From Candidatus Planktophila sp. (GTDB lineage Bacteria > Actinomycetota > Actinomycetes > Nanopelagicales > Nanopelagicaceae): a DNA stretch of 64,000 nucleotides. Numbering within the stretch: the stretch's first letter is position 1; every line of letters begins with the position of its first letter. The notes beneath the pieces were generated by a model. That model had not been told where the DNA came from. It was given only the letters and a program-made list of their open reading frames with translations, and did no database searches. Shown piece by piece: positions 3,260 through 10,920 of the stretch. The position numbers and the translations under genes were made by a program. The DNA lies in the NCBI GenBank assembly GCA_040402335.1, contig JBBAMX010000008.1:4925-68924 (forward strand). Reading direction: 5' to 3'.

Positions 3260-4696
3260 TTAATCTAGTTGGCTTTTACGCATTGCAACAAACTCATCTA
3301 GCTCTTTGAGCATCGAAGCATCGATCTCTGGGGCGACGTAATCCTCCAGTTTTTTCTTGTAGATATCGGCGGCACGCGCCTTCGTATCTTTGCCGCCCAA
3401 GCGGGTCCAACGCTCGAAGTTATCGCTATTTGTTAAGAAGGGACGGTAGAAACAGTCACGAAAACGCTCCATTGTGTGCGCCGCGCCTAAGAAGTGACCG
3501 CCATGGCCGACCTCTAGGTGGGCATCAAAGGCGAGTGATTCGATATTAAACTCAAGTGGAGTGAACTCGGTCATCAGTGATTGCAGAATTTCGATATCTA
3601 AAACAAACTTTTCATAACATGAGACCAGTCCACCTTCGAGCCAGCCGGCGGTATGCATCACCCAGTTTGTGCCAGATAAGAACGTCGGCATCATTGTCAT
3701 CATTGTTTGATATGCCGACTGGGCATCAACGGTCTGCGAAGAGTTTAAGCCGCCGCCGCCACGAAAGGGAAGGTTAAAGCTGCGTGCAATCTGACCGGTG
3801 CACAGCAGTCCAATTCCAGATTCTGGTGTTCCAAACTGTGGTGATCCTGACTGCATATCGATGTTGGAGAGAAAAGAACCGAAGACAATCGGGCATCCAG
3901 GATTAAGTGTCTGTGCCAGTGCAATTCCAGTTAAGGCCTCGGCGATCTGCTGCGCCAAAGTAGCTGGGATGGTGACCGGGCTCATCGCGCCCATAAGTAA
4001 AAATGGTGTGACAACAACTGGCTGGCCAGCTAAAACATATTCGCGCAATGAGTCCAACATGCGATCATCCCAGCGCAGTGGTGAGTTGCAGTTTACGAGA
4101 GAGATTAGCGCAGGAGTTTCAACGATAGCTTCGCGGCCACCGTGAATGATCTCCGCCATTCGAATTACATCTTTAGCGTTCTCGGCCGTAACCACGTTGC
4201 CCATAAAAAACTTATCGGTGAGGGTGGCGGCGGCATATGCCATATCCAAATGGCGTGAATCAAGCGAGAGATCATTCGGTTCGCAGACGACACCACCGAC
4301 GCTATCGAGTGCATCAAATGACTGCGCTAGCTTGCAAAAGTTTTCATAATCCTTAAATGTTGCATCGCGGCGAATATCGCCTTCGCGAACAAATGGTGGA
4401 CCGTAAACTCCACCAAAGACCATCGAGTTCCCACCGATATGAACATTGTTCTTGGGGTTGCGAGCGCGCAGATTAAACTCACTCGGAGCCAATGCGCACT
4501 GCTTTAATATCCAGTCGGGATCGAACTTAACGTTCTCACCTTCTACGCTCTGTCCGGCATCACGCAGGACATCGATCGCCCATGGTGACATGAACTCAAT
4601 GCCTATCTCAGAGACGATGCGTCGCCACCCTAGAGTTAAGGTCGCCATGGACTCTTGGCTCAAAATCTCGTATCGGGGCATTCGATTTTCAAACAT
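3260..4696 (-). CDS. mttB: MttB-superfamily (trimethylamine methyltransferase family) methyltransferase, pyrrolysine-free (MtgB-like)
   Basis: Family motifs GPPFV, CEPND, NCNSPLRWD, TPFLLMGAMSPVT, GTPES, HTAGWLEGGL, GPGGHF-like GHGGHFLG. No in-frame TAG. SD AAGGAG at 4703-4708. Confidence 0.9.
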   Translation of the reverse strand: MFENRMPRYEILSQESMATLTLGWRRIVSEIGIEFMSPWAIDVLRDAGQSVEGENVKFDPDWILKQCALAPSEFNLRARNPKNNVHIGGNSMVFGGVYGPPFVREGDIRRDATFKDYENFCKLAQSFDALDSVGGVVCEPNDLSLDSRHLDMAYAAATLTDKFFMGNVVTAENAKDVIRMAEIIHGGREAIVETPALISLVNCNSPLRWDDRMLDSLREYVLAGQPVVVTPFLLMGAMSPVTIPATLAQQIAEALTGIALAQTLNPGCPIVFGSFLSNIDMQSGSPQFGTPESGIGLLCTGQIARSFNLPFRGGGGLNSSQTVDAQSAYQTMMTMMPTFLSGTNWVMHTAGWLEGGLVSCYEKFVLDIEILQSLMTEFTPLEFNIESLAFDAHLEVGHGGHFLGAAHTMERFRDCFYRPFLTNSDNFERWTRLGGKDTKARAADIYKKKLEDYVAPEIDASMLKELDEFVAMRKSQLD

Positions 4697-4831: not shown

Positions 4832-5593
4832 ATGAGCGAGTTAGTAAATGGAACCCAGGCGATAGATCGAGCCAGTGCACTCCTTATCAACGTCCTTGAA
4901 TCATCGACTCCCCCATTATTATCTGAACTATCTCGTACTCATGAGATTCCTAAGAGTACAACATCTCGAATGTTAAGCGCCCTCGAACGCCAAGGTCTTG
5001 TCCGCCGAGATCGCAACGGCGCCTTTATCGCCGGTGATGTTTTAACCCAGTTTGCTCGCTCGCAAAATCATGACTCCGTGCTGGTCGCGCGTATGCACTC
5101 AGTCTTGGAAAAATTAGCAATGAGTACAGGTGAGACGGCCAACTTAGCGGTCTCCAGCAATAGTCAGATGAAGTTAATCGATCAAGTAGATGGTCACTAT
5201 CTATTGGGAGCGACAAACTGGATTGGAAAAGTAATTCCATTTCACGCATCGGCCCTTGGCAAGGTTCTTCTTGCATATGGCGCGGCGACAATTCCACTTG
5301 GAAAATTAGAAAAACTTACTTCTAAGACAATTACTGCGCGCCCCCGCTTATTAAGCGAACTCGAGAGCGTAAGAAAAAAAGGCTACGCGATTATCGTTGA
5401 CGAGCTTGAGGAAGGGCTCGTGGCGGTAGCTGCACCTATTCGTGAAGATGATGGCCGAGTGGTTGGTGCGATTTCAATCTCTGGACCATCGCCACGATTA
5501 ACACAGCGAGATTTAGCAAAGATCGGCGACGTTATTATCCAAGAGATTCACTCACTCCAAAGCCTCAATGAAGGAAAGATAGGTGCAGCATGA
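4832..5593 (+). CDS. IclR-family transcriptional regulator
   Basis: N-terminal HTH (QAIDRA...LSELS...PKSTTSRMLSAL) and C-terminal HASALGKVLLA and GYAI..DELEEGL.AVAAPI motifs. Confidence 0.92.
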   Translation: MSELVNGTQAIDRASALLINVLESSTPPLLSELSRTHEIPKSTTSRMLSALERQGLVRRDRNGAFIAGDVLTQFARSQNHDSVLVARMHSVLEKLAMSTGETANLAVSSNSQMKLIDQVDGHYLLGATNWIGKVIPFHASALGKVLLAYGAATIPLGKLEKLTSKTITARPRLLSELESVRKKGYAIIVDELEEGLVAVAAPIREDDGRVVGAISISGPSPRLTQRDLAKIGDVIIQEIHSLQSLNEGKIGAA

Positions 5594-6255
5594 CTCACGA
5601 TGACATCATCAAGGCGCTCTTTGACGAGACGTTGGTTGGAAACGCTCCCGCGGTTTTAGCGTTAACTAATCAAGGTATCGCCGATGGCATGACTCCCAGC
5701 ACAATTCTCTTCGATGCGCTTATTCCTGCGCTAGAAGAGGTTGGTGCCCGCTTTGAACGCGGCGATTTCTTCGTCCCAGAGATGCTGATCTCTGGCAAGG
5801 CGATGTCTGGTGCGCTGGCTGTACTGCGACCACTGCTTGCCGAGACCGGGGCTGAGACCGTTGGAACGTATTTAATGGGAACCGTAAAGGGCGATGTTCA
5901 CGATATCGGCAAGAACCTTGTCAACATCATGCTCGAGGGTGCTGGCTTTAACGTGATCGATCTCGGCGTCCAAGTGGCTCCGGAAAAATTCATCGCCGGA
6001 ATCCTGGAACACAAGCCCGATATCGTGGGAATGTCGGCATTCCTCACAACAACAATGCCGATGTTTAAAGTCAATATTCATGAAATTACTAAGGCTGGCC
6101 TGCGGGATGAAGTCTTTATCATGGTTGGTGGTGCGCCGGTAACACAGGAGTATGCCGATGTAGTTGGCGCCGATGGCTTTGCCGCCGATGCTTCGACTGC
6201 CGTTCGCATCGCTAAAAATCTAATCGCCAAGAAACGCGCAACGGTCTCCGTATAA
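5590..6255 (+). CDS. Stand-alone corrinoid (B12-binding) protein, MttC/MtbC/MetH-cobalamin-domain type
   Basis: Cap domain (FVPEMLISGKAM) plus the B12 motif GTVKGDVHDIGKNLV, SAFLTTT and VGGAPVTQEYAD. Confidence 0.93.
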   Translation: MTHDDIIKALFDETLVGNAPAVLALTNQGIADGMTPSTILFDALIPALEEVGARFERGDFFVPEMLISGKAMSGALAVLRPLLAETGAETVGTYLMGTVKGDVHDIGKNLVNIMLEGAGFNVIDLGVQVAPEKFIAGILEHKPDIVGMSAFLTTTMPMFKVNIHEITKAGLRDEVFIMVGGAPVTQEYADVVGADGFAADASTAVRIAKNLIAKKRATVSV

Positions 6256-6260
6256 GCCCT

Positions 6261-6641
6261 ATGTTAAAAAAACTGCTCCCCTTTATTGAGCATGCGGTAA
6301 AAAAACCCGTATGGGACTGTCGTATGTGCGGTCAATGTGTTTTGCATTCAACGGGTATGACTTGTCCCATGACTTGTCCGAAGACTTTGCGCAATGGGCC
6401 CTGTGGTGGAGTGCGCGAGAATGGAAACTGCGAAGTAAAACCTGAGATGCAGTGCATCTGGGTCAAAGCTTATGATCGAACAATCTCTCTTCCCTTACCT
6501 AAAGTGTGGAAGGAGCATTACAACGATCTCCGCCCACCTGTTGATATGCAGCTCCAAGGTAGCTCTTCGTGGATTAATTTAGTGACTAAGCGCGATCAGC
6601 AAACTCCTGATGGATGGTCGATCGAAAGTAGCGAGCATTGA
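6261..6641 (+). CDS. MetV-like Cys-rich protein (methylene-THF reductase C-terminal domain family)
   Basis: Eight Cys in CRMCGQC..TCPMTCPKTLRNGPCGG...NCEV...QCIW, overlapping the metF start. Confidence 0.8.
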   Translation: MLKKLLPFIEHAVKKPVWDCRMCGQCVLHSTGMTCPMTCPKTLRNGPCGGVRENGNCEVKPEMQCIWVKAYDRTISLPLPKVWKEHYNDLRPPVDMQLQGSSSWINLVTKRDQQTPDGWSIESSEH

Positions 6642-7537
6642 TATCCGTGCTCAAAGAAAAACTAGAGAGTACTAAAGATTTAGTCTTTACCGCCGAGTTC
6701 CCATCGATAGATGGTGGTGGAATGGAGTTCGTTGAAAAAAACGCTGCCCGCCTAGCTCCCTGGTTTGATGCGGTAAATGCCACCGATAACGCCGCCGCTC
6801 ACGCCCACGCATCAAACACCACAACGGCTGTTGCAATGAAGATGCATGGCTTAGAACCCATTATGCAGATTGTCTGCCGAGATAAAAACCGTATTGCAGT
6901 CCAGTCCGACATGATGGGCGCGGCGCTTCATGGGATTCCAAATATCTCTCTCCTAACAGGTGATGATGTAACTGCAGGAGATGAGCCCGAAGCCCGGAGA
7001 GTCTTTGACATCGATAGCGCTCAAGCTATTAACATCGCCCGAATAATGACGACCGGTAGTTATCTATCGGGTCGAAAGATAAATCCCGCCCCCGATTTCT
7101 ACATTGGTGCCGTTGAAAATGCCTGTGCACCGCCCTTTGATTATCGAATAGCTCGGGCGTTAAAAAAATACCGAGCAGGTGCTAAGTTTTTACAACTTCA
7201 AATCTCTTACCATCCGGATCGCCTTGAGAGCTTTTGTAGGGGTGTGGCCGAAGTCGCCCCAGATTTAAAACTTATTCCAACGATTGTGCTTTTAAAGTCG
7301 GCAAAGTCGCTCAACTTCATCAATGATAAGGTTCCGGGAATCGACGTACCTTCCAATACCTTGGCCCGGATAAACGCCGCGAGTGATGAAAAAAGTGAGA
7401 TTTATAATTTAACGTTGGAGCTAGCCCAACACGCACTCTCACTCCCAGGTGTTCGTGGTTTGCATGTAACTGATTTTCGACATGATGACTCGCTCGATAC
7501 TTTAATGAACGACCTAGGCAGAACACCGAAACGATAG
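6638..7537 (+). CDS. metF: Methylenetetrahydrofolate reductase
   Basis: TAEF, AVNATDN, CRDKNRIAVQSD, LTGD, KKYRAGAKFLQLQ. Confidence 0.85.
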   Translation: MISVLKEKLESTKDLVFTAEFPSIDGGGMEFVEKNAARLAPWFDAVNATDNAAAHAHASNTTTAVAMKMHGLEPIMQIVCRDKNRIAVQSDMMGAALHGIPNISLLTGDDVTAGDEPEARRVFDIDSAQAINIARIMTTGSYLSGRKINPAPDFYIGAVENACAPPFDYRIARALKKYRAGAKFLQLQISYHPDRLESFCRGVAEVAPDLKLIPTIVLLKSAKSLNFINDKVPGIDVPSNTLARINAASDEKSEIYNLTLELAQHALSLPGVRGLHVTDFRHDDSLDTLMNDLGRTPKR

Positions 7538-7547
7538 GGGTACAACT

Positions 7548-8432
7548 TTGCATACAGTTCTCTCTTCTCCTGGCCAAACGGTCACGATCGGTCACGATCA
7601 GCCCTTTTGTATTATCGGAGAGCGCATCAACCCCACGGGACGGAAAAAATTCCAACTCCAACTGCGAGAAGGAAACCTGACCGCGATTGAAAAAGATGTA
7701 GCCGATCAAATTGCAGGTGGTGCAAACGTGCTCGATGTAAATATGGGTGTTCCACTCACCGATGAACCCGCACTTTTATCTAATGCGATTAAGTTAATTC
7801 AATCTATTACCGATATGCCGATCTGCATCGACTCCTCAGTTATCGAGGCGCTACAGGCTGGACTTGAGGCCTATCAAGGCAAGGCGCTCGTGAACAGTGT
7901 TACGGGCGAGGATGAGCGAATGGAGCTCGTTCTGCCGCTCATTAAAAAACATGGTGCGGCGATAATCGCCCTGCCTAACGATGAGACTGGAATTCCAGCG
8001 ACGGCCGCCGAGCGGATGATTATCACTGAAAAAATAGTTAGAGCCGTTGAAAAACACGGGATTGCCTTAGAGGATTTAGTAATCGATCCCTTAGCAATGA
8101 CCGTTGGCGCCGATCCAGAGGCCGTTAAAATTACCTTAGAGACAATCTATTTAATCCGTGAAAAATGGGGATTGAATATGACCCTAGGTGCATCAAATAT
8201 CTCATTCGGGCTTCCTTACCGCCACGCTCTTAACGCCGCATTCCTGCCGGCGGCGATGTCACATGGATTAACTAGTGCGGTCATGGATGCGCGGACACCG
8301 CTCATCGTTGAATCAGTGCGTGCAGCCGATCTGCTTCTTGGACTAGATCCGTGGGGAGCCACTTGGATTACCCGCTTTAGAGCGATGGAGGCGGCGAAGT
8401 TAGCCGCGGCTGTGAATGGAACTGGTGAATAG
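7548..8432 (+). CDS. Pterin-binding methyltetrahydrofolate:corrinoid methyltransferase (MetH pterin domain / AcsE-like)
   Basis: IIGERINPTGRKK, LDVNMG, ICIDSS, LVNSVTGE, IDPLAMTVG, GASNISFGLP. TTG start. Confidence 0.9.
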   Translation: MHTVLSSPGQTVTIGHDQPFCIIGERINPTGRKKFQLQLREGNLTAIEKDVADQIAGGANVLDVNMGVPLTDEPALLSNAIKLIQSITDMPICIDSSVIEALQAGLEAYQGKALVNSVTGEDERMELVLPLIKKHGAAIIALPNDETGIPATAAERMIITEKIVRAVEKHGIALEDLVIDPLAMTVGADPEAVKITLETIYLIREKWGLNMTLGASNISFGLPYRHALNAAFLPAAMSHGLTSAVMDARTPLIVESVRAADLLLGLDPWGATWITRFRAMEAAKLAAAVNGTGE

Positions 8433-10339
8433 CTATTAGTAAAAAAGAGCTGGATCCATCACTTGTTCCAAGCCACGACGGAACCGGTCGGGTTCGCCTT
8501 GCCTTTAGATCGCTTGAAAAAGATAACTCGGTCTCATCGCAAAAAACTATAACCGTACCTACAGGCGTTAGTGCATTTGATGCAGCATCCTGGAACGGTA
8601 TCGCAATCGATTCAACCTGCGGTGGTTATGGGACGTGTAAAAAATGTCGGATTAAAATAACCGATGGAGATATCCAGCCCTCTAAATTAGATTTTCGTGC
8701 CTTCACCGAGAGTGAGATTAAAGCCGGCTGGCGTTTAGCCTGTCTAGTGCGAACGAGTACCGACATCTCAATCGATGTACCCCCGCTTACAACTAGACCC
8801 AAGGCTGCGACCGTTGGAGTTGGCAGGCAGGTCATTCTGCGGCCAGCGGTTCAAAAGCGTTATGTTGAGTTAGAAGAGCCGACCTTGCACGATCAACGCA
8901 CCGATATCGTTCGCCTATTTGATGCGATCGATGATATCGAGGCAACGGCCTCACTTGCGGCGATACGCAACGTTCCCCGTGTACTTCGTGCTGCCAACTT
9001 TAAAGTTACGGCAGTCTTTGTCGATCAAGCCTTTATCGATCTCGAAGCCGGAGACACCACCGCGTTTCGATATGGAATCGCATACGATCTCGGAACAACC
9101 ACCGTCGTGGCAACGCTGCTAGATCTCAATACAGGAGCTCCACTTGCCGTAAAATCAATATTAAATAAGCAGCAACCATTTGGTGCCGACGTCATTACTC
9201 GAATCAGTGCCACCATGCTCGATCCAGCGGCCCTTGAAAAACTATCAAGCCTGGCACAAGAGACCCTGAATCAACTCACGCAAGAGGTCTGCATCGAAGC
9301 CGGTATAGATCCGCTTCACGTATATGAGATCGCTATCGCTGGAAATGCAACGATGAACCAGCTGCTACTTGGAATCGATCCCGAACCTCTAGGGGTAGCT
9401 CCCTTTATTATGGCGGCAGCCGACTTCCCCGATGTGGATGCGCGCGATATCGGAATAGCGATTCATCCGCGGGCAAAGGCGGTTATTTTGCCCTCACTTG
9501 GGGCATATGTTGGTGGAGATATTATCGCTGGCGCCCTTGCCTCGGGAATGGATCGCGATAAACGGCTACGTTTATTTATCGATGTCGGCACTAACTGTGA
9601 GATTGTTTTAGGCGATGGAGAAAAGATTTTAGCTACCGCCGCCCCAGCTGGCCCAGCCTTTGAAGCTGCAAGTATTAAATGTGGTGTACGCGCCGCCTCT
9701 GGTGCGATCGAGACGATCAAAATCGTTGATGGCCAGTTAATTATCGGTACGATCGACGATACGCCGGCGATTGGAATCTGTGGCTCGGGCTTAGTCGATG
9801 CCTGCGCATCTTTAGTCGGTATTGGTTTACTCGATCTCTCGGGCCGCTTTGTAAGCGATGAAACTGCCCGAGAGATTGCGCCAACTCTCGCCGATCGATT
9901 ACTTTTGCGTGAAGGTGAGCGGGTATTTGTTTTAACATGGAGCAAAGAGGTTGGTGATTTAAGCGACTGTGTCTTTTTAACCCAGCGCGATGTTCGTGAA
10001 CTTCAATTTGCAAAGGCAGCGATCGCAACGGGATGGGCCCTGCTGCTTGAAGAGTTTGGTGTCGCCGAAGATGAGATTGCGCAGGTCTTACTTGCCGGAT
10101 CCTTTGGCTCCTACCTCTCCCCCGCCTCGGCTATCAAGATTGGGTTAGTACCTAAGTTATCGGTTATGCGAATCATGTCGGCCGGAAACGTTGCTGGTGA
10201 GGGCGCAAAGATGGTTTTACTTTCGGCGCAAGAGCGACACGGTGCTACTGCGCTGCTCAATGAGATCTCCTACGTCGAACTCTCTGATCGTGCCGATTTC
10301 AACGATAAATTTGTAGATCGATTAGCCTTCCCGGCATGA
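8429..10339 (+). CDS. RamA/RACo-type ATP-dependent corrinoid reductive activator (ASKHA) with N-terminal [2Fe-2S] domain
   Basis: The frame is open from 8429 (after in-frame TGA 8426-8428). It encodes STCGGYGTCKKC...GWRLAC upstream of the track's GTG 8747, followed by YDLGTTT, GADVITRI, DVGTNCE, AGPAFE, GICGSG and LAGSFG. The exact start is uncertain (non-canonical). Confidence 0.88.
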   Translation: MAISKKELDPSLVPSHDGTGRVRLAFRSLEKDNSVSSQKTITVPTGVSAFDAASWNGIAIDSTCGGYGTCKKCRIKITDGDIQPSKLDFRAFTESEIKAGWRLACLVRTSTDISIDVPPLTTRPKAATVGVGRQVILRPAVQKRYVELEEPTLHDQRTDIVRLFDAIDDIEATASLAAIRNVPRVLRAANFKVTAVFVDQAFIDLEAGDTTAFRYGIAYDLGTTTVVATLLDLNTGAPLAVKSILNKQQPFGADVITRISATMLDPAALEKLSSLAQETLNQLTQEVCIEAGIDPLHVYEIAIAGNATMNQLLLGIDPEPLGVAPFIMAAADFPDVDARDIGIAIHPRAKAVILPSLGAYVGGDIIAGALASGMDRDKRLRLFIDVGTNCEIVLGDGEKILATAAPAGPAFEAASIKCGVRAASGAIETIKIVDGQLIIGTIDDTPAIGICGSGLVDACASLVGIGLLDLSGRFVSDETAREIAPTLADRLLLREGERVFVLTWSKEVGDLSDCVFLTQRDVRELQFAKAAIATGWALLLEEFGVAEDEIAQVLLAGSFGSYLSPASAIKIGLVPKLSVMRIMSAGNVAGEGAKMVLLSAQERHGATALLNEISYVELSDRADFNDKFVDRLAFPA

Positions 10340-10920
10340 ACATCGGCATCGTGGCCTGCGGTGCGCTAGCCACACACATTAACGAGATTGCGATAGCTAA
10401 TAATCTTGACCTAACGATCTATCCGCTGCCGCCGTTGTTACATAATCGCCCTGAAAAAATCGCTGGCGAAGTCGACTCACTTCTACATGAGATAAAAGCA
10501 AAACATATTAAATGCGCCGTGGCCTACGCCGATTGCGGAACATACGGAGCCCTCGATGCGGTTATTCAAGCCCATGGTGTCGCCCGACTTCGTGGAAATC
10601 ACTGTTATGACATCTTTGCCGGAGCGGCCGAGATAGAGCGGTTAATGGAGCAAGATGCAGGTACGTACTTCCTAACGGATTTTCTCGTAAAATCCTTCCA
10701 TCGAAGCGTCATCGTTGAGCTTGGATTAGATAGATATCCCTACCTTCGCGATGACTACTTCAAAAACTATACGCGAGTGATCTGGTTGGCTCAGAGCCCA
10801 AGCCCCGAACTGGAAGCGGCCGCAGTCTCAGCGGCGGCTGAGATTGGCCTGCCACTTGAGATTCACAACGCCGGCGCTACCGGTTTAACTGCCCAGATTC
10901 TCGAACTAATTTCGCACTAA
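10336..10920 (+). CDS. DUF1638-family protein (associated with corrinoid reactivation)
   Basis: IVACGAL, LHNRPEKI, YADCGTYG, GNHCYDIFAG, GTYFLTDF, YFKNYTR. ATGA overlap with the activator gene. Confidence 0.75.
   Translation: MNIGIVACGALATHINEIAIANNLDLTIYPLPPLLHNRPEKIAGEVDSLLHEIKAKHIKCAVAYADCGTYGALDAVIQAHGVARLRGNHCYDIFAGAAEIERLMEQDAGTYFLTDFLVKSFHRSVIVELGLDRYPYLRDDYFKNYTRVIWLAQSPSPELEAAAVSAAAEIGLPLEIHNAGATGLTAQILELISH

Follow-up and report, generated by a model that had tools for sequence, protein, structure and literature searches.

The corrinoid activase gene and its reading frame

The DNA analysed here (the window, 64,000 nucleotides (nt) in length) comes from Candidatus Planktophila sp. 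(GenBank assembly GCA_040402335.1, contig JBBAMX010000008.1, positions 4,925 to 68,924 of the forward strand). It contains a gene for a corrinoid reductive activase of the RACo/RamA type, which follows a methyltransferase gene almost directly and whose N-terminal [2Fe-2S] domain is encoded upstream of the first ATG, GTG or TTG of the frame. Based on the comparison with related genomes, translation of this gene very probably starts at an ATT codon at position 8435. The features of the gene and its 5' region are as follows (window positions):

8435..10339, + strand, RACo-type corrinoid reductive activase, full coding sequence of 634 codons plus stop (Pfam, PDB 3ZYY)
8435..8437, + strand, putative initiation codon ATT of the activase (conserved as ATT or ATC in relatives)
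8438..8536, + strand, clade-specific N-terminal tail and first strand (SKKELDPSLVPSHDGTGRVRLAF...), assigned as translated (periodicity and ratio of non-synonymous to synonymous differences, pN/pS)
8537..8752, + strand, [2Fe-2S] ferredoxin domain with the Cys codons TGC 8618, TGT 8636, TGT 8645 and TGT 8741 (Pfam Fer2, 3ZYY alignment)
8747..8749, + strand, GTG, first canonical in-frame codon, assigned as not the start (follows all four Cys codons; not conserved)
8424..8428, + strand, Shine-Dalgarno-like (SD-like) GGTGA within the final codons of the methyltransferase gene, 6 nt 5' of the ATT (sequence reading)
8416..8439, + strand, mini open reading frame MELVNSY* in the third frame (ATG 8416, TAG 8439), attributed to chance (not conserved)

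Sequence reading and translation showed that the activase frame is closed by a TGA at 8426-8428 and is then open from ATA 8429 to the TGA at 10337-10339. The upstream methyltransferase gene ends with GGT GAA TAG, its stop codon (8430-8432) lying 2 nt before the ATT. Since GTG 8747 is the earliest ATG, GTG or TTG of the frame, the list of open reading frames (ORFs) gives 8747..10339 with 530 amino acids (aa), and 106 activase codons including the complete [2Fe-2S] domain are left without a canonical start. The codon-usage score of these 106 codons was 0.217, the same as the genome-wide mean for the 40 initial codons of long ORFs. This coding score, together with the purifying selection determined for the relatives, indicates that the stretch is not open by chance. 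An initial annotation, made from the sequence of the window, had reported TGA 8426, the frame from 8429, the four cysteines, GTG 8747, the GGTGA motif and the mini-ORF, and all of these positions were confirmed.

In the translation of the frame from 8429, the Pfam domain Fer2 covers residues 37-108, so that almost the entire domain lies 5' of GTG 8747. It is followed in order by RACo_linker, Raco_middle and RACo_C_ter (PF17650, PF17651 and PF14574) with E-values of 7e-21 to 7e-71, far above the cut-offs. The structure of RACo from Carboxydothermus hydrogenoformans (PDB 3ZYY) was matched with an E-value of 2.7e-99 over query residues 37-632, beginning at chain residue 11. In this alignment, the C-x5-C-x2-C...C pattern of the activase corresponds to CGGAGTCGKC...LAC of 3ZYY, the four cysteine ligands of the plant-type [2Fe-2S] ferredoxin domain. 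Judged by these matches, the gene is that of a RACo-type corrinoid reductive activase (DUF4445/ASKHA), and the ATP-dependent reduction of the corrinoid from Co(II) to Co(I) is predicted for its product.

Comparison of the start codon across relatives

Activase loci were collected by a whole-genome search, which gave seven loci of the same genus and one from another family, and by a scan of species-representative genomes, which gave 80 further loci. Five loci truncated at contig ends, one duplicate and L064 with its unreliable N-terminal alignment were removed, which left 80 unique loci. The relatives are Planktophila and Nanopelagicaceae genomes at species level, and since the 60 loci with ATT or ATC (ATY loci) are phylogenetically related, all counts and P-values given below overstate their independence.

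The codon homologous to 8435 was ATT in 42 loci, ATC in 18, ATG in 15, TTG in 2, GTG in 2 and, with some uncertainty, ATA in 1. Within the 60 ATY loci, the first two bases are always A and T and the third is either T or C, although ATA accounts for 13% of the Ile codons of this genome. The bases 5' of the codon show no conservation in the activase frame and belong to the 3' end and stop codon of the upstream gene and to a spacer of 1-4 bases. In most ATY loci, the activase frame upstream of the codon is either closed within 0-5 codons or contains no canonical start, and the first canonical start downstream is scattered from +10 to +134 codons, often past the cysteines of the Fe-S domain.

The distance between the upstream stop and the ATY codon was determined as 1 nt (17 loci), 2 nt (29), 3 nt (8), 4 nt (2), 11 nt (L018) and 39 nt (L068), and an overlap of 8 nt was found in 2 loci. 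The codon is thus located 1-4 nt past the upstream stop in 56 of the 60 loci and overlaps it in 2 more. In L068, the long spacer carries AAGGAG-N7-ATC, and no canonical in-frame start is present. This arrangement indicates that ATC is usable as an SD-driven start without tight coupling.

Canonical codons occupy the same place, or one next to it, in several other loci. L063 has an ATG exactly at the homologous codon (MSKKELDP), L058 has a GTG immediately 5' of the retained ATT, the sister group L072-L083 has an ATG one codon later (MAKEFNPD), and a high-GC relative has an ATG coupled to the upstream gene by ATGA. In the early-branching L078 (JAKAIC010000105.1), GGGAG is followed after 6 nt by ATA at the expected start with no canonical start nearby, and an initiation at ATA is possible for this locus.

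Signals of translation at the ATT/ATC codon

A three-base periodicity of the conservation sets in right after the ATY codon, with 1.11, 1.35 and 0.48 bits at codon positions 1, 2 and 3. In the 56 ATY loci without gaps, the pN/pS was 0.37 for codons 2-13, 0.20 for codons 14-34 and 0.18 for codons 35-110, which comprise the ferredoxin domain. Thirteen close relatives carry a GTG at codon 11, and their codons 2-10 showed a pN/pS of 0.11 at a pS of 0.54. Due to this constraint, the GTG at codon 11 was rejected as the real start of these 13 genes.

Upstream of the codon, a G-rich SD-like patch was found at -11 to -8 in the 60 ATY loci, with a G at -10 in 51 of them. In the relatives, the SD-like sequences read GAAGGGA, ACGGAGG or GGTG. 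The predicted RNA structure is weaker around the codon, with -8.2 kcal/mol compared to -10.8 to -12.3 kcal/mol at three internal controls (paired P<1e-4, overstated as the loci are related). The sequence AAAAAAG at 8441-8447, which follows right after the start and covers Lys-Lys-Glu codons, is kept in most ATY loci; it may just represent an A-rich, unstructured initiation region.

A variant initiator tRNA reading AUY was considered as well and rejected. The sole initiator-like tRNA of the genome is a standard one with the anticodon CAU, C1 and an anticodon stem containing three G-C pairs, and the tRNA-Ile(GAU) is ordinary.

Probable initiation at ATT 8435 and alternative explanations

Altogether, these data point with high probability to ATT 8435 as the start of the activase. 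In the proposed mechanism, the SD-like purine-rich sequence in the last codons of the methyltransferase gene would position ribosomes on the ATT, which they would reach largely by coupling to the translation of this gene, and the ordinary CAU initiator tRNA would read AUU as a near-cognate codon. The predicted product comprises 634 residues with an intact N-terminal [2Fe-2S] domain and the N-terminus (f)M/I-SKKELDPSLVPSHDGTGR.

Several points weigh against this assignment. The start was placed from sequence, and the support for the bases at 8420-8440 comes from independent assemblies alone. The GGTGA of the window is a modest SD sequence, and its pairing partner could not be read, since the 3' end of the 16S rRNA was searched for in the assembly and not found; the rRNA operon is apparently missing, and only 31 tRNAs were detected. 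In addition, a canonical codon is present 2-4 codons upstream in some relatives (GTG in L002, ATG in L015, TTG in L030 and L018) and could serve as the start there instead.

Among the alternatives, the one that survives best concerns the route and not the codon. Only ribosomes that have just terminated at the upstream stop could be using AUU or AUC, by 70S scanning or re-initiation, in which case the output would be set by upstream translation and not by SD-driven, IF3-checked initiation of 30S subunits (IF3, initiation factor 3). The narrow range of distances from the upstream stop described above is what this explanation would predict, and the other junctions of the operon are also tight. 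Tight spacing is, however, normal in this streamlined genome and need not be functional. Furthermore, the 39-nt spacer of L068 with its strong AAGGAG at -7 of the ATC, the 11-nt gap of L018 and the conservation of the G-rich SD-like patch at the right distance are not expected if re-initiation were the only route. Exclusive re-initiation is therefore rated as unlikely, though it deserves consideration.

A start at another site is considerably less probable and can be regarded as very unlikely. A full-length product could also be initiated at ATA 8429 or CTG 8450, both of which are near-cognate codons (10.1101/063800), and a start at GTG 8747 would give an ATPase of 530 aa without the Fe-S domain. 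For the latter, it can be stated that RACo lacking the ferredoxin domain is stable in crystals (PDB 4C1N, chains of 509-510 aa). However, the position of ATA 8429 reads AAT, GTT, AGT, AGA, AAA or others in the relatives, that of CTG 8450 reads CTA, TTA, CTC or CTT, and GTG 8747 is replaced by GTA or GTT in close relatives and kept as GTG in some. The strong constraint on the ferredoxin domain (pN/pS of 0.18) and the first canonical start, which varies from genome to genome, likewise argue against GTG 8747. Of the three candidates ATA 8429, ATT 8435 and CTG 8450 named in the initial annotation, only the ATT is thus retained as ATT or ATC (60 of 80 relatives), while the positions of the other two hold different, mostly non-start codons.

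An assembly error, an indel or a strain-specific lesion would mean that an extra base near 8426-8434 has put GTG 8425 out of frame, the gene being either mis-sequenced or a pseudogene. The close relative L002 (= L012) shows what such a sequence would look like, with the upstream stop and the ATT separated by 1 nt rather than 2 nt and a GTG in frame three codons upstream. The initial annotation had named relatives with one base fewer as a sign of an error or lesion, and this locus is the exception. In at least 13 equally close genomes (88-94% identity), the spacing is likewise 2 nt and the conserved tail is preceded by no canonical start (L007, L011, L013, L014, L016, L017, L019, L020, L021, L024, L025, L069 and L084), and ATT or ATC was found in 60 independent assemblies with an intact frame under purifying selection. 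An error or lesion is thus extremely improbable.

The same can be said of a recoding fusion, in which methyltransferase ribosomes would shift frame at A AAA AAG (8441-8447) or read through TAG 8430 into a methyltransferase-RACo protein: the two genes nearly abut and a -1 shift at this dnaX-like heptamer in the frame of the upstream gene would enter the activase frame, but the heptamer lies 3' of the upstream stop so that recoding would have to occur twice, a 39-nt spacer separates the genes in L068 where the activase has its own SD sequence, and no single shift or readthrough could be conserved because every possible frame relation between the activase and the upstream gene occurs (gap modulo 3 of 2, 1 and 0 in 30, 21 and 9 loci, respectively).

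Of the three explanations offered in the initial annotation, non-canonical initiation is consequently supported by the conserved ATT/ATC, while a frameshift is contradicted by the variable phase and an indel by the independent assemblies. The mini-ORF at 8416, which had been suggested as an alternative, was abandoned, since it lacks conservation and falls within the C-terminal codons of the methyltransferase gene, a variable region.

Proposed consequences for the expression level

In E. coli, AUU and AUC initiate at about 1-2% of the level of AUG (10.1101/063800), and IF3 discriminates against near-cognate start codons (PMC5472188). A weak, IF3-discriminated start would keep the activase low compared to the methyltransferase, the corrinoid protein and MetVF of the same operon. 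Since RACo is a catalytic, ATP-consuming repair enzyme, the expected need for it is small, and a weak start within a coupled operon could set its level accordingly low. By analogy, it is plausible that the weak start throttles the expression of the activase. A point against this assumption is that the data on weak expression and on IF3 originate from E. coli and Streptomyces only.

A more far-reaching idea is tentative and considered possible rather than probable. ATT/ATC might be a selected, IF3-gated throttle, by which the synthesis of RACo would be tied to the IF3 level, and hence to growth state or stress, as well as to the translation of the methyltransferase. Such a throttle would have persisted throughout the radiation of this dominant freshwater lineage, giving way now and then to ATG, GTG or TTG. 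The activase gene and infC (ATC/GTC) would then form a small IF3-dependent translational regulon in a streamlined genome with few transcription factors.

Evolution of the start codon

A tree was calculated from the protein without its N-terminus by a quick IQ-TREE search, with support values from the Shimodaira-Hasegawa-like approximate likelihood ratio test (SH-aLRT) only. ATT, ATC and possibly ATA are found on the earliest branches of the ingroup (L070, L078 and L068) and through most of the clade, and the canonical starts are nested inside the tree as three ATG groups, one TTG pair and one GTG. The well-supported branches require at least four changes between the labels ATT and ATC. As read from these sequences, the arrangement without a canonical start is old and stable, and lineages occasionally escape from it.

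Operon and genome context

The genome is streamlined, with an assembly of 1.43 Mb, a completeness of 99.5% and a G+C content of 48%. Its relatives carry the names Candidatus Planktophila or Nanopelagicaceae and thus represent freshwater acI actinobacteria. The following neighbours of the activase gene were assigned by Pfam:

7548..8432, + strand, upstream gene, pterin-binding methyl-tetrahydrofolate:corrinoid methyltransferase (MtgD/MtrH-like; Pterin_bind, E=4e-28)
10336..10920, + strand, DUF1638 gene, its ATG overlapping the activase stop (ATGA)
5590-6255, B12-binding corrinoid protein
3260-4696, non-Pyl MttB, the operon being divergently transcribed

The start codons of the operon are ATG for the IclR regulator, the corrinoid protein and MetV, TTG for MetF and the pterin-binding methyltransferase, ATT for the activase and ATG for DUF1638, a series that resembles graded initiation strengths. 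The junctions between these genes (window 4832-10920) measure -4, +5, -4, +10, +2 and -4 nt. Such a B12-dependent glycine-betaine demethylation system, MtgBCD with RamA and DUF1638, is known from aerobic marine bacteria, with DUF1638 as a known partner of RamA-like activases (PMC12478193). By its gene content, the cluster of the window is a system of this kind. An Rfam scan of the window gave two tRNAs only and no riboswitch near the operon.

The activase gene was found in only 7 of 25 sampled genomes of the genus, this one counted. The gene, and probably the demethylation cluster with it, is therefore accessory in Planktophila.

Non-canonical starts elsewhere in the genome

The gene of IF3, infC, was compared in 28 genomes of the genus. 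Its start lies 6 nt past a conserved SD sequence, mostly AAGGAG or TAGGAG; 23 genomes have ATC at this place, and 5, among them the present one, have GTC. Since infC of the genus starts at ATC or GTC, the lineage does use non-canonical starts. In this genome, infC (contig C2:12748-13335, - strand, L091) shows no canonical start before the IF3_N domain, and AAGGAG is followed after 6 nt by GTC (VSTEPRINDR). As a start codon, GTC is very rare, with Streptomyces sigR as a known example.

When the whole genome was screened for coding leaders that lack a canonical start, only a handful of genes emerged, namely those of RACo, IF3, a TauE-like protein, apt and perhaps a YHYH gene. A general laxity of this genome in the choice of start codons was rejected, as the screen gave so few cases and those of TauE and apt are specific to this genome. 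According to these sequence comparisons, the activase gene is the sole metabolic gene with such a start conserved throughout the clade.

The remaining cases differ from each other. For the TauE/SafE-family permease (contig C7:6481-7272, - strand, L140), the first canonical start comes 69 codons after the beginning of the Pfam domain. CTC ATC stands in place of the GTG or ATG of the relatives, a genome-specific loss of the start, and an ATC start is possible. The apt-like gene (adenine phosphoribosyltransferase; contig C17:134-685, - strand, L120) has 100 coding codons before its first canonical start, with the ATT codons 3 and 7 of the open frame as candidate starts, and its homologues in the same genus (about 50-55% identical) have ATG or GTG starts. 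In the YHYH-domain gene (contig C6:65956-66561, + strand), the open frame enters the domain at residue 7, and the first canonical start follows 103 codons later. Its product shows no visible signal peptide, and the gene may represent a non-canonical start, a frameshift or a pseudogene.

Annotation and significance

As had been anticipated in the initial annotation, automated gene calling misplaces the start and truncates the protein. In a collection of 5.8 billion proteins, the orthologue calls at 80-94% identity comprise 562, 590, 596, 602, 609, 615, 624, 626 and 634-661 aa. This spread results from gene calls beginning at whichever canonical codon is nearest; the 624-aa entries stem from the GTG at codon 11, and the 562-aa calls have lost the Fer2 match. 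Calls without the Fe-S domain would mislead metabolic reconstructions of B12-dependent glycine-betaine demethylation.

With AUU or AUC kept in 60 species-level genomes, an interchange of the two codons and orthologues starting with ATG at this very position, the activase is among the better comparative cases of a start other than ATG, GTG or TTG outside infC. It is also a candidate case of a start codon setting the enzyme stoichiometry within an operon, in the abundant and hard-to-culture freshwater lineage acI. A literature search found no paper linking Planktophila with start codons, and a search on RamA or RACo together with start codons gave no title on the subject.

Comparison with known systems

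The RACo of C. hydrogenoformans (3ZYY, 4C1N) shows the same domain order as the activase of the window, an N-terminal [2Fe-2S] ferredoxin domain followed by the linker, the middle domain and the ASKHA ATPase. Archaeal RamA proper has C-terminal [4Fe-4S] clusters instead. The bacterial 'RamA' proteins of MtgBCD clusters share the neighbours of the activase, i.e. non-Pyl MttB, corrinoid protein, pterin-binding methyltransferase, MetVF and DUF1638 (PMC12478193). Compared to the known RACo and RamA proteins, the Planktophila activase differs in its clade-specific N-terminal tail of about 20 residues and in its ATT/ATC start, and the more distant orthologues collected here (the high-GC relative and the ATG groups) begin at canonical codons.

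With regard to the start codon, a case outside the translation factors is pcnB of E. coli (poly(A) polymerase), which has a weak AUU start that limits an enzyme harmful or wasteful in excess. While pcnB and the activase gene would be alike in this respect, the former is a single enterobacterial gene, whereas the start of the latter is conserved at the level of a family with switching between AUU and AUC. In infC, which starts at AUU in E. coli and at AUC in Streptomyces (PMC5472188), a conserved near-cognate start behind an SD sequence has likewise been kept for a long time and is missed by gene-finders. The difference lies in the autoregulation of infC, where IF3 discriminates against its own start, whereas RACo is a metabolic repair enzyme in an operon with no feedback logic evident.

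The closest analogue of the proposed throttle is sigR of Streptomyces, whose GTC start holds SigR below RsrA through IF3 (Feeney et al. 2017, PMC5472188). In both cases, a non-canonical start would keep the level of one operon product lower than that of its partner. For sigR, this was shown experimentally for a pair of sigma and antisigma factor with GUC, whereas the activase has AUU or AUC and enzymes as partners, and its stoichiometry is inferred. Near-cognate start codons are thus a known kind of initiation signal, of which the activase of the freshwater acI actinobacteria is a new and unusually well-conserved case that involves no new mechanism.

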